Shown here one piece after another: positions 28,431-45,291 of a DNA stretch of 64,000 nt (the first letter of the stretch is position 1; each line of letters starts with the position of its first letter). The notes under the pieces were generated by a model that worked only from the letters and a program-made list of their open reading frames with translations, searched no databases and had not been told where the DNA came from. A program made the position numbers and the translations under genes. Source of the stretch: an uncultured Methylomirabilota bacterium (GTDB taxonomy: Bacteria; Methylomirabilota; Methylomirabilia; Methylomirabilales; 2-02-FULL-66-22); assembly GCA_963845565.1 (NCBI GenBank), contig CAWJSJ010000004.1, positions 47,905-111,904 of the forward strand, written 5' to 3'.

Positions 28431-28441
28431 AGGTGATCGGA

Positions 28442-28474
28442 GAGCCGGATGCGGGCAAACCGCACGTCCGGTTC
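28442..28474 (+). ncRNA. group II intron domain V
   Basis: GAGCCGGAUGCGG-GCAA-ACCGCACGUCCGGUUC matches the conserved domain V hairpin. Confidence 0.75.
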
Positions 28475-28587
28475 GATGAGGGGGTGCTGGCGTCCGGGCA
28501 CGGTCGGGCTCGTGAGGCACCGCCAGACGAAAGGGGCGGGAACAGATAGGCCCGACCTACCTTCAGATTCCCAGGCTCTACTCTACC

Positions 28588-37302: not shown

Positions 37303-37427
37303 CGGCTGCTGAAAACGGCCCACCTGCAGCGTTGGAGCGCCTCGCCACTCGCTGCGACGTACTTCCAGTACGCCTCGCTCGGGCCGTCGGCACTCCGCCT
37401 TGCATCTGGGCCATTTTGAGCAGCCTG
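37303..37427 (+). repeat. nested-palindrome intergenic element, copy c
   Basis: Starts immediately after the TAA of the binding-protein gene. Confidence 0.8.
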
Positions 37428-39000: not shown

Positions 39001-39126
39001 CCGACTGCTGAAAACGGCCCATCTGCAGCGTTGTCGCGCTCGGGCGCTCGTTACAGCGTACCTGGAGTACGCTTCACTCGGCCCGTCGGTGCGCCGCCTT
39101 GCATCTGGACCGTTTTGAGCAGTCGG
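39001..39126 (+). repeat. nested-palindrome intergenic element, copy d
   Basis: Starts immediately after the TAG of the amidohydrolase gene. Confidence 0.8.
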
Positions 39127-40106: not shown

Positions 40107-40261
40107 AAAAGGCCCATCTGCGGGGACCCATCCTCCGGACGGGTACCCCGCGCGCTCGCGCGCTCGCTGCGGCGTACCTGGAGTACGCCTCGCTCGGCCC
40201 CCGGGTGCCCATCCGTAGGATGGGTGGTGCCGCCTAGCAGCCGGACCTTTTTGAGCAGCCC
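40096..40261 (+). repeat. nested-palindrome intergenic element, copy e (longest)
   Basis: CAGGCTGCTGAAAAAGGCCCATCTGC ... GGACCTTTTTGAGCAGCC with extra internal hairpins. Confidence 0.8.
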
Positions 40262-40479
40262 GAGCGAGAGCGTGGTCTTCGGAATCTAGCTCGCCTCGCC
40301 GCCCCGCAAGATGTACGTCTGTGTCGGTGCGTGCCTTGACAATCATACCAAGTCGAGAGTAGCCTTCCAGCCATCGTACCTCTCCCTCATTACCAGCGGA
40401 GGCGGCTCCATGGGGTCGGCCAGAAACGGCGCTCCGGACCCGAAGCGTGCCAGCGGTTTGGCCCGTCCACCGTGGCCAC

Positions 40480-40690
40480 TCCGGGTGCATTCCCGCCCCA
40501 CCTGGCGTCCGTCCTCTCAGCCAGCAATCCAAACCCCTCGACCGCCATCCCACCGAGTTGGCCGGACCGGCGATCAACGCCTGTCTGCGGTACGAGAACT
40601 CCCGGGCCATCACGACGTCACCGCCACGATGATCTATTCGCATATCCTCAATCGTGGACCGGCGGGTGTCCGTAGCCCGTTAGGCCGTGA
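40480..40690 (+). pseudogene. tyrosine recombinase remnant (integron-integrase-like C-terminus), heavily decayed
   Basis: ...[31 protein letters not shown] resembles the (V)QELLGH.DV.TTMIYTHVLNRG..GV.SPLD end of IntI/Xer-type recombinases. Upstream similarity is only patchy across frames. Confidence 0.5.
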
Positions 40691-40726
40691 CCGAATCTAT
40701 TCACACCCGTAAGGAACTTTGCCACA

Positions 40727-41473
40727 ATGGACATCCCACGGATCTTCAACATCACCGAAAGTGCTCACCGCATCCATAACCCGATCACACCCGAAAAACT
40801 CGCCACCCTCGGCACGGCGCTGCGTCTGGCACCGGGGGCCCGAGTGCTCGACCTCGGCAGCGGTTCGGGGGAGATGCTGTGCACCTGGGCACGCGATCAC
40901 GGCGTCAGCGGCACCGGCATCGACATGAGCCAGTTGTTCACCGAGCAAGCGAGACGCCGTGCTGTAGAACTCGGCGTCGCCGATCAAGTCAAGTTCATCC
41001 ATGGCGATGCGGCCGGCTATGTCTCTGATGAGAAGGCCAGTGTGGCCGCCTGTGTCGGTGCCACGTGGATCGCCGGGGGAGTCGCCGGCACGATCGAGCT
41101 TCTGGCGCGCAGCCTGCGCACCGGAGGGATCATCCTCATCGGCGAGCCCTACTGGCGGCAGTTACCGCCGACGGAAGATGTGGCCAAGGGGTGTCTTGGC
41201 AACTCCATCTCCGACTTTCTCAGGCTTCCAGAACTTCTCGCGACTTTCGGCCACCTCGGCTACGACGTCGTGGAAATGGTTTTGGCAGACCAAGACAGCT
41301 GGGACAGATACGAGGCGGCCAAGTGGCTCACCATGCGCCGATGGCTTGAAGCCAATCCCGACGACGAGTTCGCGAAAGATGTTCGAGCCCAACTGACCTC
41401 GGAACCCGAGCGCTACGCCGCGTACACGCGTGAGTACCTGGGCTGGGGTGTGTTCGCGCTGATGCCGCGGTGA
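40727..41473 (+). CDS. class I SAM-dependent methyltransferase (cassette 1)
   Basis: VLDLGSGSG motif I and GGIILIGEP post-I/II motifs. 248 aa. Confidence 0.85.
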   Translation: MDIPRIFNITESAHRIHNPITPEKLATLGTALRLAPGARVLDLGSGSGEMLCTWARDHGVSGTGIDMSQLFTEQARRRAVELGVADQVKFIHGDAAGYVSDEKASVAACVGATWIAGGVAGTIELLARSLRTGGIILIGEPYWRQLPPTEDVAKGCLGNSISDFLRLPELLATFGHLGYDVVEMVLADQDSWDRYEAAKWLTMRRWLEANPDDEFAKDVRAQLTSEPERYAAYTREYLGWGVFALMPR

Positions 41474-41609
41474 TGCGTTGGGGCATCCGGGGATTGTCAA
41501 CGGCTGTGCCGCGCAACAGCTGGTGGCTCGCCGAGATGTGATTGCGCCTGAATTCATTTCTTACGGTCTCGTTGTCCGTGCAATCAACAGAAAGGCCTGT
41601 CACAGGCAG

Positions 41610-41830
41610 GCCTAACAACCGGTTGCAGCGGACGACGCTCCGCGCCGCCGGTAAACCGGAGCGTTGCGCGGGCTTGGCACGCAGGTGGCTTGGGCGCGCC
41701 GGCCCGCTGGTCGACACTCGGGTGGTGACCGAATATCTGGCGGCCCCCGCGCCCGTGCAACGGGGCCGCGGCTTGCCAGCCGCCCTCGGGCGTCGCGTCT
41801 TGCGCCGCCCAACCGCGGGCCCCGTTAGCA
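41610..41830 (+). other. attC-like recombination site 1
   Basis: Left core GCCTAAC (41610..41616) is the exact reverse complement of GTTAGGC at 40679..40685. Right core is GTTAGCA (41824..41830). It contains a 150-bp core (41666..41815) shared with site 2. Confidence 0.55.
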
Positions 41831-41859
41831 CCATCGCATGAAAAGACGGAGGACCAGGA

Positions 41860-42519
41860 ATGAACTCATTCGAGCGGCTCGTTCGCGCGGTCGTCATCCA
41901 GACGCTCCGTGACACCGGGTTCGCTCCTTCGGCCGCGCAGATCGCCGCCACATTGAGCGCCTCTGAACCGGACATCTCTTCGGCACTGCACTCCCTATCT
42001 GAGAGGCACAGGCTTGCGCTTCTGCCAGGAACCGACAAGGTGTGGATGGCGCATCCGTTCTCCGGCGTGGAAACCGACTTCGCCGTCTCCATCGGTAAGC
42101 GTCGATGGTTCGCCAACTGCGTGTGGGACGGTCTGTCGATACTCGCGCTGCTCGGTGACGGAAACCTCTACACCCACTCGCCGGCCACAGGCGAGCCGAT
42201 CCAGCTTACGGTGTCCGCCCGCAAAGTTCTCGGCGAAGCGCTGGTCCACTTTCTGGTGCCAGCCCGGCGTTTCTGGGACGACATCGGATTTACCTGAGCG
42301 AACATCACCGCCTTCCGGTCGGAAGGTGAGTTGGATGCGTGGCTTAGGTCCCGCGGCTACCCCAAGGGAGCGATCGTCGTTCCCCAGATCCTATATAATC
42401 TCGGTGCTGACTGGTACGCCACCCGCCTTGAGGTTGATTGGAAACCGGCGAGCGCAGAGGAGGCTACGGTCCTGTTCGCGAAGCACGGGCTGGTCGGCGG
42501 TTTCTGGTCGTTAATCTAG
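41860..42519 (+). CDS. MerB-like (alkylmercury lyase family) protein with in-frame TGA, candidate selenoprotein (cassette 2)
   Basis: ORFs 41860..42297 and 42331..42519 are in the same frame, separated only by TGA 42295..42297. FANCVWD is a Cys-x-x-Asp motif. ...DDIGFT-TGA-ANITAFRSEGELDAWL continues the family alignment. Confidence 0.7.
42308..42328 (+). promoter_or_regulatory. candidate bacterial SECIS hairpin
   Basis: CCGCCUUCC-GGUC-GGAAGGUG: 8 bp including one G-U, with apical loop GGUC at +23..+26 from the U of UGA. As I recall, the E. coli fdhF SECIS has the same loop at almost the same spacing. Confidence 0.6.
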
Positions 42520-42525
42520 TAAAGG

Positions 42526-42816
42526 TGCTAACCCCCCACTTCAGCCGACGCGAAACCCGCGCGGCTGATTTCGGCGTGGCGCGGGCTCGGCACGCAGGTG
42601 GCTTGGGCACGCCGGCCCGCTGGTCGACACTCGGGTGGTGACCGAATTTCTGGCGGCCCCCGCGCCCGTGCAACGGAGCCGCGGCTTGCCAGCCGCCCTC
42701 GGGCGTCGTGTGCCGCGCCGCCCAACCGTGCCGGCAGCCAACATCCCTCCGCTGTGCTCCGGGGCTTCGCCCCGCCGCCCGCGGCGGGGTGCGGCTGAGC
42801 CGTCGCCCCGTTCGAC
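42526..42816 (+). other. attC-like recombination site 2
   Basis: Left core TGCTAAC (42526..42532) is the exact reverse complement of GTTAGCA at 41824..41830. Right core is GTTCGAC (42810..42816). The shared core is 42577..42728. Confidence 0.55.
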
Positions 42817-44495: not shown

Positions 44496-44646
44496 ACCAG
44501 TGAGTCAGGCATTCTCGCTGACCGTCACGCTTGCATCTCGTCCTTGCGAAATAGTGCAAGAGGACAAGGCGAAGGAGTAGGCGGGCGGCAAGCGCGCCGG
44601 CAGCCAAACGCGCCGTCCGGCAAACATGGTCGCCGCAGTTCCTCTG

Positions 44647-44675
44647 TTGACTCGCGTCACGTGACGCGTTACACT
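44647..44675 (+). promoter_or_regulatory. sigma-70-type promoter with embedded palindromic operator for higBA
   Basis: TTGACT - 17 nt - TACACT. The spacer is essentially the perfect 16-bp palindrome CGCGTCACGTGACGCG. ATG of higB lies 7 nt after the -10. Confidence 0.55.
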
Positions 44676-44681
44676 CCCCTC

Positions 44682-44963
44682 ATGATCAAGACGTTCGCGG
44701 ACAAGCGCACGAAGGATCTCTACGACACCGGTCGGGCCAAACGCTTCCCGCCGGATGTGGCAGGTCGCGCAGCCCGCACGCTCGAGTATGTGGACCTCGC
44801 GACCCAGATCGACGACCTGAAGGTTCCACCCGGGAATCGGTTCCACGCACTGGAAGTCGACGGTAAAGGCCAGTACTCGATATCCATCAACGACCAGTGG
44901 CGTATCTGCTTCCGGTTCGTCGACGGGGACGCCTACGACGTCGGGGTCTGTGACTACCACTGA
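44682..44963 (+). CDS. higB: type II toxin HigB (RelE/ParE superfamily, plasmid-maintenance killer family)
   Basis: MIKTFADKRTKDLYDTGRAKRFPPDV...LKVPPGNRFHALEVDGKGQYSISINDQWRICFRF is the classic HigB family pattern. Confidence 0.85.
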   Translation: MIKTFADKRTKDLYDTGRAKRFPPDVAGRAARTLEYVDLATQIDDLKVPPGNRFHALEVDGKGQYSISINDQWRICFRFVDGDAYDVGVCDYH

Positions 44964-44976
44964 GACGAGGTGTGAG

Positions 44977-45291
44977 ATGAGCATCGCCAACACAGGACCC
45001 ATGAAGCGCCGTCCCACCCATCCGGGCGAGATGCTGCGCGAGGACTTCCTCCCGGACTACGGCCTGACCGTGTCCGGGCTCGCTAACGCCATCGGTGTGT
45101 CGCGCCAGTCGGTCAACGACCTACTGCGCGGGCGTCGTGCCGTGAGTCCGGAGATGGCACTGCGCCTCGGCAAGCTGTTTGGGAACTCGCCGGAGTTCTG
45201 GCTCAACGCCCAGCGCGCCGTCGACCTATGGGACGCGGCCCAGGCGATCAAGGACAACGTCGCCGGCATCAAGACGCTGAGTGTCGCCTGA
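44977..45291 (+). CDS. higA: HigA-family antitoxin (XRE-type HTH)
   Basis: PTHPGEMLREDFL...GLTVSGLANAIGVSRQSVNDLLRGRRAVSPEMALRLGKLFGNSPEFWLNAQ. Confidence 0.85.
   Translation: MSIANTGPMKRRPTHPGEMLREDFLPDYGLTVSGLANAIGVSRQSVNDLLRGRRAVSPEMALRLGKLFGNSPEFWLNAQRAVDLWDAAQAIKDNVAGIKTLSVA

Follow-up and report, generated by a model that had tools for sequence, protein, structure and literature searches.

A MerB-like gene with an in-frame UGA codon

We analyzed a 64,000-nucleotide stretch of DNA (the window) from an uncultured Methylomirabilota bacterium (contig CAWJSJ010000004.1, positions 47,905 to 111,904 of the forward strand), in which a gene related to the organomercurial lyase MerB contains an in-frame UGA codon that we read as selenocysteine (Sec). 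Positions given below are those of the window. The gene occupies 41860..42519 of the plus strand, on which its signals and the cassette elements described further below also lie. A Shine-Dalgarno-like GGAGGA (41848..41853), seen in the sequence, stands 6 nt 5' of the ATG at 41860. From this start codon the frame runs through 145 codons to a TGA at 42295-42297, and then through 73 further open codons to a TAG at 42517-42519. We read this as a complete selenoprotein gene of 219 codons, whose predicted MerB-fold product comprises an N-terminal winged-helix-like region and a catalytic core. An initial annotation, made from the sequence alone, had taken the two same-frame open reading frames (ORFs) on either side of the TGA for a single protein of the MerB family. 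The domain search agrees with it: with a placeholder Cys set at the TGA, the fused 219-codon product scores 73.1 bits with PF03243 (MerB; gathering score 27), over residues 67-186 and hence across the TGA.

To place the catalytic residues, we aligned the product to MerB structures (PDB 1s6l, 3f0p, and 3f2g) and to MerB2 (5c17) with phmmer and a profile. The TGA column falls, ungapped, on the catalytic Cys159 of MerB, with F-T-[TGA]-A-N-I of the query opposite S-F-C159-C160-H-V. The Cys and Asp of the motif FANCVWD, which the initial annotation had matched to Cys96 and Asp99 of MerB, do align there as Cys87 and Asp90 (Cys87-Val-Trp-Asp90 codons at 42118..42129, with Cys87 at 42118-42120 and Asp90 at 42127-42129). 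The alignments thus bear out the proposed Cys-Asp-Sec triad. Cys87 is invariant across all alignments made, and Asp90 is invariant in the close Sec-type set and conserved in at least 90% of the wider set. Where MerB has Cys159, the window gene and 77 of 77 relatives have a UGA (Sec); Sec, though a chemical analogue of Cys, is a different residue. A profile built from 25 family sequences reaches E = 2e-20 to MerB2 and ~4e-12 to MerB. The window protein stays below the cut-offs of the NCBIfam MerB equivalogs NF009710/NF033555 (28.4 bits against 193 and 20.5 against 200), and the best E-value to these models among the 25 family members is 1.3e-12.

We also modelled the fold with AlphaFold2, using P0004, a Sec-type homologue that is 59% identical to the window protein, and an alignment of 71 sequences. 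The model is confident (predicted local distance difference test score 95.5, predicted template modelling score 0.91) and covers the region beyond the TGA. In a Foldseek search of the PDB, its top 11 matches were all MerB or MerB2 (E 8e-9 to 3e-6, TM-score ~0.6-0.7), and these two were its only significant neighbours. Its N-terminal ~50 residues gave weak winged-helix matches (LexA, MntR).

The UGA codon and the downstream coding sequence are conserved

A protein search over 5.8 billion proteins returned 653 homologues. Among the best 120 of these, 118 stop after the residue aligned to T145 (...DDIGFT), 113 of them being exactly 145 aa long. The remaining two entries are 'full-length' and print W at the TGA codon, which is probably a gene-caller artefact. 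An example of a truncated copy is RefSeq WP_230997545.1 (Geomonas sp. RF6), a 145-aa 'alkylmercury lyase family protein', and further carriers of the gene include the NC10 chromosome OY970067.1 and Longimicrobiales OZ242947.1. When representatives clustered at 50% identity were searched exhaustively with HMMER, 965 clusters matched at E <= 1e-3, of which 424 also passed E <= 1e-10. The majority of the 150 best representatives stop at the residue aligned to 145, down to ~32% identity. For the 114 of these 150 that are 135-200 aa in size, the last residue is T in 99 (FT 76, YT 13, HT 9, DT 1) and N, S, or A in 9, and in none is the residue before the UGA a C.

To examine the codon itself, we took the DNA of 80 species-representative genomes, of which 77 could be aligned through the UGA site. 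The 80 genomes comprise 32 Acidobacteriota, 22 Actinomycetota, 10 Gemmatimonadota, 4 Chloroflexota, 3 Gammaproteobacteria, 2 NC10/Methylomirabilota, one each of Desulfobacterota, Bacteroidota, and Marinimicrobia, and 4 others. The initial annotation had suggested looking for orthologues with TGA or TGC at this codon, and both exist: the TGA is retained in all 77 alignable loci, which span at least nine phyla, and more distant homologues have TGC. An in-frame tail of 72-75 codons follows the TGA in 70 of the 77 loci and is conserved as protein up to residue ~218. When the 73-aa tail was used by itself as a database query, the matches were limited to 8 fragments of small ORFs, none of them a Cys form. 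The 77 family genes end in TGA (43), TAG (28), or TAA (6). Because TGA is the true terminator in 43 of them, these hosts use the standard code, with TGA as a normal stop.

Could the TGA be a true stop, so that the locus is a pseudogene, carries a sequencing error, or holds two genes (145 aa and 62 aa)? The 145-aa product is indeed what all public gene callers give, and in a few annotations the tail appears as a small ORF of its own. Against this stand the TGA at the identical column in every alignable locus, the conserved tail, and two independent contigs (L081 and L082) that share the TGA at the identical site. Moreover, the Cys-containing homologues described below are single fused proteins, and the MerB fold needs the tail, which the confident P0004 model covers. 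We consider a true stop to be very improbable.

A covarying hairpin follows the UGA

Downstream of the UGA, the RNA is predicted to fold into a hairpin that we take for a bacterial selenocysteine insertion sequence (SECIS). Counted from the first base of the UGA, positions +15..+22 pair with +27..+34 and enclose the tetraloop GGUC at +23..+26. This 8-bp upper stem-loop, supported by the fold and by covariation, lies at 42309..42328 with its loop at 42317-42320, and weaker lower pairs lengthen the hairpin to ~42303-42337. The 56-nt stretch from the UGA has a free energy of -22.3 kcal/mol (z = -2.5). The stem length and the loop position given in the initial annotation hold, but the spacer between TGA and stem is 11 nt in the fold rather than 13.

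The 48 nt from the UGA onward give a gapless alignment of 78 sequences, in which TTCCGGTCGGA at +19..+29 hardly varies, also where protein identity is down to 38%. Within it, three synonymous third positions are all but fixed (C at +21 in 76 of 77, G at +24 in 76 of 77, G at +27 in 73 of 77), Arg is nearly always encoded by CGG and Ser mostly by TCG in the hairpin, and the loop is GGUC in ~71 of 77. Across the 78 sequences, 88.7% of the cells in the 8-bp helix pair. The covariation score is 0.324, compared with 0.154 +/- 0.012 in shuffled alignments (0 of 500 reach 0.324) and at most 0.11 in slid controls. Compensatory changes are found at pairs 16-33 (GC 34, GU 13, CG 9), 17-32 (CG 39, UA 14, GC 11), and 18-31. 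Judging from these substitutions, the hairpin is under selection as RNA. A crude scan of the whole window for split ORFs with a UGA and a hairpin gave ~30 matches in this 66% G+C DNA and was uninformative; the recurrence of the TGA and hairpin pattern in 77 of 77 homologous loci is far beyond chance.

The initial annotation had noted the same loop and nearly the same spacing in the SECIS of Escherichia coli fdhF. To check this, we located the fdhF element, which is present at 100% identity inside fdhF in 5,419 of 5,426 E. coli genomes, and folded it. It forms a GGUC loop at +22..+25, compared with +23..+26 here, and the comparison is correct.

Distant homologues carry cysteine at the UGA column

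Full-length relatives at ~30% identity (P0234, P0243, P0248, P0263, and P0173) have a real Cys, encoded by TGC, at the Sec column. The same is true of QWQ14797.1 from a Ralstonia solanacearum megaplasmid, which reads ..VIYT-C-SVQLLFRDE.. at this site. In the Cys forms, the DNA reads TGC and the GGUC hairpin is absent. The QWQ14797.1 type is labelled 'hypothetical protein' and is found in 98 Ralstonia megaplasmid records. In QWQ14797.1 (contig L086, 2977-3654; CP076416.1), P0234, and P0243, the MerB Asp position is also occupied by Cys, giving a putative three-Cys metal site. In P0248 (contig L084, 8001-8942), the Cys-type MerB-like domain is joined to a C-terminal GerE/LuxR helix-turn-helix (HTH) domain, a hint that part of the family may be regulators that sense organometals.

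These homologues, together with the hairpin, bear on how the UGA is decoded. Decoding other than as Sec, through Trp or Gly reassignment, near-cognate readthrough, or Cys insertion, would be in keeping with the W printed in two database entries and with a window in which the Sec machinery was not seen. We nevertheless judge it very improbable. Reassigned codes are ruled out by the 43 family genes that use TGA as their real terminator, a covarying GGUC hairpin at the fdhF distance is specific to SelB-dependent recoding, and a catalytic Cys at the same column in homologues is the classic Sec/Cys signature. Taken together, the conserved UGA, the conserved tail, the Cys at the catalytic column of homologues, and the covarying SECIS make up the standard computational criteria for a bacterial selenoprotein. 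On these comparative grounds, a genuine selenoprotein gene is well supported, with Sec very probably inserted at the UGA.

The family is distinct from the selenoprotein SaoL

The initial annotation knew of no Sec-containing MerB family, but such families had been published earlier. SaoL (selenocysteine-assisted organometallic lyase; model NF040728) is a selenoprotein resembling MerB. It has a CU motif, and its Sec162 falls on MerB Cys159 when the two are superposed (bioRxiv 10.1101/2022.07.06.499078; J Bacteriol 2023, Haft & Gwadz). It marks a nine-gene SAO locus in strict anaerobes, rich in Firmicutes (Haft & Gwadz, 10.1101/2022.07.06.499078), and is listed in reviews of 2022 and 2026 (PMC9312934, PMC13188914). 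Sec at the position of MerB Cys159, and the notable chemistry that the initial annotation saw in it, is therefore already published for SaoL. Before that, Peng et al. (2016) listed an 'Organic mercuric lyase MerB2' selenoprotein in 17 genomes (Suppl. Table S3, PMC5029168), only in this supplementary table and without sequences; their tabulation may include a member of the clade studied here. For a MerB-like selenoprotein, the 2026 review cites the Global Ocean Sampling paper of 2008, in whose main text MerB is not named.

Is the window gene simply a member of SaoL? The two share a superfamily, a weak NF040728 match, and a Sec aligned to MerB Cys159. The window protein, however, scores only 21.3 bits against NF040728, whose curated cut-off is 140; of 25 family members none comes near it, and the best of their E-values is only 2.3e-11. 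In addition, the dipeptide before and at the Sec is T-U in the window gene and never C-U in the 114 sized sequences among the top 150 representatives, none of which ends in C. The nine-gene SAO neighbourhood was found at none of 75 loci, and a Pfam census of the 143 flanking genes of these loci contained no SAO components. Finally, the hosts are mostly Acidobacteriota, Actinomycetota, and Gemmatimonadota, unlike the Firmicute-rich strict anaerobes that carry SaoL. Given the low score, the T-U motif, the lack of a conserved neighbourhood, and the different hosts, we conclude that the window gene is not SaoL, a possibility to which we assign very little weight.

What is new, then, is that the gene belongs to a different and larger clade than SaoL, which we found annotated as a selenoprotein nowhere, and that it is carried on integrons. 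Among the 119 selenoprotein families and subfamilies catalogued in 2026, SaoL is the only MerB-like entry, with no second one, and NCBIfam release 20 has no model for the window family. In size, the family would run to hundreds of clusters at 50% identity, with species representatives numbering at least 148. A more far-reaching interpretation is that this is an undescribed, widespread 'T-U type' family apart from SaoL that perhaps gained its Sec independently, spread between phyla as a SECIS-bearing integron cassette, and possibly represents an overlooked high-affinity organometal or methylmercury demethylase; this we hold to be a tentative proposal, with chances slightly short of even.

The gene lies in an integron-type cassette

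The gene is bounded by a pair of complementary core sites. A junction G|TTAGCA at 41824..41830, the attC R' core of the preceding element, lies 36 nt 5' of the ATG and is the exact complement of TGCTAAC at 42526. This inverse core (42526-42532) begins 7 nt past the stop codon and, with a short palindrome, marks the start of the cassette's own attC, which presumably extends over 42526..42582 and is degenerate at its 3' end, with GTGGCGC where the preceding element has GTTGCGC. On both sides of the gene lies a 155-nt direct repeat, with copy 1 at 41661..41815 and copy 2, which is 94% identical, at 42574..42728, 3' of the gene. Copy 1 features GTGCAAC at 41753 and arms at 41762-41780 and 41804-41822, followed by GTTAGCA. 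This repeat looks like a cassette that has no ORF but an attC-like palindrome of its own. Part of the intergenic region 5' of it (41474-41649) is 76% identical to positions 14681-14856 of L048, a Thermoleophilia metagenome-assembled genome (MAG), ~4 kb from the Sec-MerB gene of L048.

Further 5', the preceding cassette (40679..41616) carries an S-adenosylmethionine-dependent methyltransferase gene (40727-41473) between G|TTAGGC at 40679 and its complement GCCTAAC at 41610. Its first junction sits within the remnant of an IntI-type integrase, of which the last ~34 codons are left at 40581..40712 in the same direction as the cassettes (tblastn with IntI1, match at 40581-40682, 59% identity over 34 aa, E 8e-8). 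Strong intI matches in relatives validate the IntI1 query. Nothing integrase-like was found in the window 5' of the remnant. Such complementary pairs of a 5' TTRRRY and the element's own R'' core are the signature of integron cassettes.

Related loci agree with these boundaries. L081, an independent contig from a metagenome, matches the window at 93% identity until 42532, the last base of TGCTAAC, and continues past this break with a canonical ~80-nt attC (TGCTAAC...GTTAGGG) and then an unrelated AT-rich gene. A Thermoleophilia MAG (L013) has a near-complete intI, 53-66% identical to IntI1. After it come at least 11 cassettes in a row, which have attC sites of 80-84 nt and cores that pair as complements, and the Sec-MerB orthologue of L013 is one of these cassettes (GTTAGCC 9962 to GGCTAAC 10666). 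In L007, the gene lies directly 3' of a truncated intI (N-terminal 190 aa) between the same GTTAGCA/TGCTAAC pair as in the window, at equal distances to the start and stop codons. Remnants of the intI 3' end also occur in L001 (3986-4174) and L004 (6580-6672), and the integrase runs in the cassette direction in L013, L007, L001, L004, and the window. The complementary cores, the break of L081 at 42532, and the L013 array all support the integron-like cassette carrying its own SECIS that the initial annotation had described. Being internal to the ORF, the SECIS travels along with the gene. Cassette boundaries surround the gene in only 3 of 75 species representatives, so that most copies are ordinary chromosomal orphans and the cassette form is restricted to a few of the closest relatives. 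The window array itself is best described as a degenerate integron or a cluster of attC sites lacking integron-integrases (CALIN).

Several other features were seen in and around these arrays. Positions 2167-12869 of L013 form a textbook chromosomal integron, whose intI is possibly frameshifted near 2838-2850. In three unrelated genomes (window, L001, and L004), only the last 30-60 codons of intI survive, just 5' of the cassettes, which suggests that the attI of such 'inverted' integrons overlaps the 3' end of intI. A HigB-like toxin (PF05015) and an HTH_3 antitoxin are encoded two ORFs 3' of the cassettes in the window (44544-45291, plus strand); toxin-antitoxin pairs are typical of integron arrays and genomic islands. 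A possible third cassette pair (GTTCGAC 42810 / GTCGAAC 43952) was judged unconvincing. An imperfect palindrome of ~125 nt occurs three times (37303-37425, 39001-39126, and ~40151-40270), with arms of 25-27 nt that are 72 nt apart, directly 3' of the stop codons of an SBP_bac_5 gene, an amidohydrolase gene, and an unknown ORF. These palindromes resemble repetitive extragenic palindromic sequences or miniature inverted-repeat transposable elements, unlike the 155-nt repeat. We rejected them as attC sites, as they lie 5' of the intI remnant without core sites and flank opp-operon-type genes. Elsewhere in the window, Rfam identifies a group II intron (RF00029) at 28440-28566 on the plus strand (44.4 bits, gathering score 40), around which a partial Pfam scan of the ORFs found no reverse-transcriptase match.

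Proposed mechanism and points against it

Overall, we consider it very probable that the gene encodes a 219-residue MerB-fold selenoenzyme with the triad Cys87/Asp90/Sec146, made by SECIS-directed recoding of the UGA and carried as the payload of an integron-type cassette. The hairpin 11 nt downstream of the UGA at 42295 would recruit SelB-GTP with Sec-tRNA(Sec), in the manner of the E. coli fdhF element, so that Sec would be inserted at position 146 and the 73 further codons translated, completing the catalytic domain. By analogy with MerB, the Cys87 thiolate and the Sec146 selenolate would then ligate the metal of an organometallic substrate, and Asp90 would protonate its leaving carbon. Hg(II) should be held more tightly by a selenolate than by a thiolate, which would favour capture at trace concentrations but could slow product release. 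The protein presumably acts on organomercurials or other organometals and is presumably expressed in its host.

A number of observations weigh against this interpretation. The upper stem in the window lacks the bulged U that E. coli SelB uses in fdhF, and the hairpin has no Rfam match, either at gathering thresholds over the whole window or at permissive E-values over 42200-42420. Neither tRNA-Sec nor selA, selB, or selD was found in the 64-kb window (ARAGORN, and Pfam searches of ~50 window ORFs), and ARAGORN found no tRNA-Sec in the ~1.3 Mb of the 80 related loci. With no Sec genes in the window and no tRNA-Sec in the loci, the Sec competence of the host rests on comparative inference. The fold model was made for a 59%-identical homologue printed with Trp at the Sec position and not for the window protein. 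As to mobility, the intI remnant has only 34 codons, while attC sites in the window have either decayed or been broken up by the 155-nt repeats, so that the window copy may no longer be mobile. Finally, merA, merR, merT, and merP are absent, by Pfam, from the window and from the 143 flanking genes of 75 loci, and clustering of the neighbouring genes found no conserved neighbour, the commonest flanking cluster being present in 9 of 77 loci. With neither mer genes nor conserved neighbours, the gene context gives no support to an organomercurial role.

The last point raises the possibility that the protein is a genuine selenoprotein with another function, acting on a different organometal or organometalloid, or binding or sensing a metal through its N-terminal winged-helix-like region. 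The missing mer operon context at all 75 loci agrees with this, as do the 28 bits to the MerB equivalog (cut-off 193), the weak LexA/MntR-type structural matches of the N-terminal ~50 residues, the HTH fusion of the Cys-type relative P0248, and the argument of the SaoL authors that Sec at the metal site may alter the substrate range (10.1101/2022.07.06.499078). However, the MerB constellation of Cys, Asp, and Sec for Cys is strictly conserved in the Sec clade, and the N-terminal domain also occurs in canonical MerB structures and is covered by the MerB2 alignment. We consider this alternative unlikely overall, yet the most serious of those weighed here, and the physiological substrate of an organometallic lyase of this type may not be mercury at all.

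If the Sec-type proteins do form a widespread T-U family, they could be an overlooked high-affinity organometal or methylmercury demethylase of soils and sediments. Environmental merB inventories reportedly require Cys96, Asp99, and Cys159; if so, Sec-type proteins, whose products look cut short and have no 'Cys159', would presumably be discarded from such surveys, despite being common in soil and sediment phyla. Methylmercury demethylation has been reported without explanation in such settings, for example in Geobacter bemidjiensis (PMC10114901). A selenolate ligand should raise the affinity for the metal and may shift the enzyme to trace substrate concentrations or to other organometals. The question of the SaoL authors about Sec at the metal site can now be addressed in a second, independent lineage. 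The cassette would, if our interpretation is correct, be the first documented selenoprotein integron cassette. As it is useful only in Sec-competent hosts, it offers a natural system for studying the spread of recoding-dependent genes. Every database copy seen ends at the Sec codon, and a curated model with a full-length reference would correct thousands of entries and add one family to the prokaryotic selenoproteome.

Comparison with known systems

Compared with canonical MerB and MerB2 (PF03243; 3f0p, 5c17; EC 4.99.1.2), the window protein has the same predicted fold, keeps the catalytic Cys and Asp, and places its third ligand in the identical column. It differs in that this ligand is Sec and not Cys, its identity to them is only 17-20%, it falls under the NCBIfam MerB cut-offs, and merA, merR, merT, and merP are not nearby. 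The Cys-type sister clade (QWQ14797.1, P0234, P0243, and P0263) is closer, with ~30-33% identity over the full length, a matching length and architecture, and the Cys of a T-C motif exactly at the Sec column; it has TGC instead of TGA, no hairpin, and in several members a Cys in place of the Asp (NCAWC).

The putative SECIS shares with that of E. coli fdhF a GGUC apical tetraloop and a stem-loop that begins 11 nt past the UGA, whereas its upper stem is an unbroken, G+C-rich helix of 8 bp, which we predict to be a SelB target. As for the cassette, the array resembles known integron cassettes and CALINs in its complementary G|TTRRRY and RYYYAAC boundaries, its small promoterless single-gene units, its unrelated neighbouring cassettes and toxin-antitoxin pair, and the bona fide intI and array around the L013 orthologue. 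It departs from them in that intI in the window is a 34-codon remnant running in the same direction as the cassettes and not divergently, and in that the attC sites are degenerate and interleaved with the 155-nt repeats.

A further parallel is SaoL, which also belongs to the MerB superfamily, has a single Sec at the Cys159 equivalent, keeps the Cys96 and Asp99 equivalents, and routinely ends at the UGA in its database copies. SaoL, however, has a CU dipeptide where the window family has [F/Y/H]-T-U, and the window protein reaches 21 bits with the SaoL model, compared with the 140 of the cut-off. SaoL accompanies the nine-gene SAO locus of strict anaerobes, whereas the window family lacks conserved neighbours and is an integron cassette in several genomes. 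Its members come for the most part from Acidobacteriota, Actinomycetota, Gemmatimonadota, Chloroflexota, and NC10 MAGs. In summary, the window family is a second MerB-like selenoprotein lineage, much more widespread than SaoL and currently cut short in the databases.

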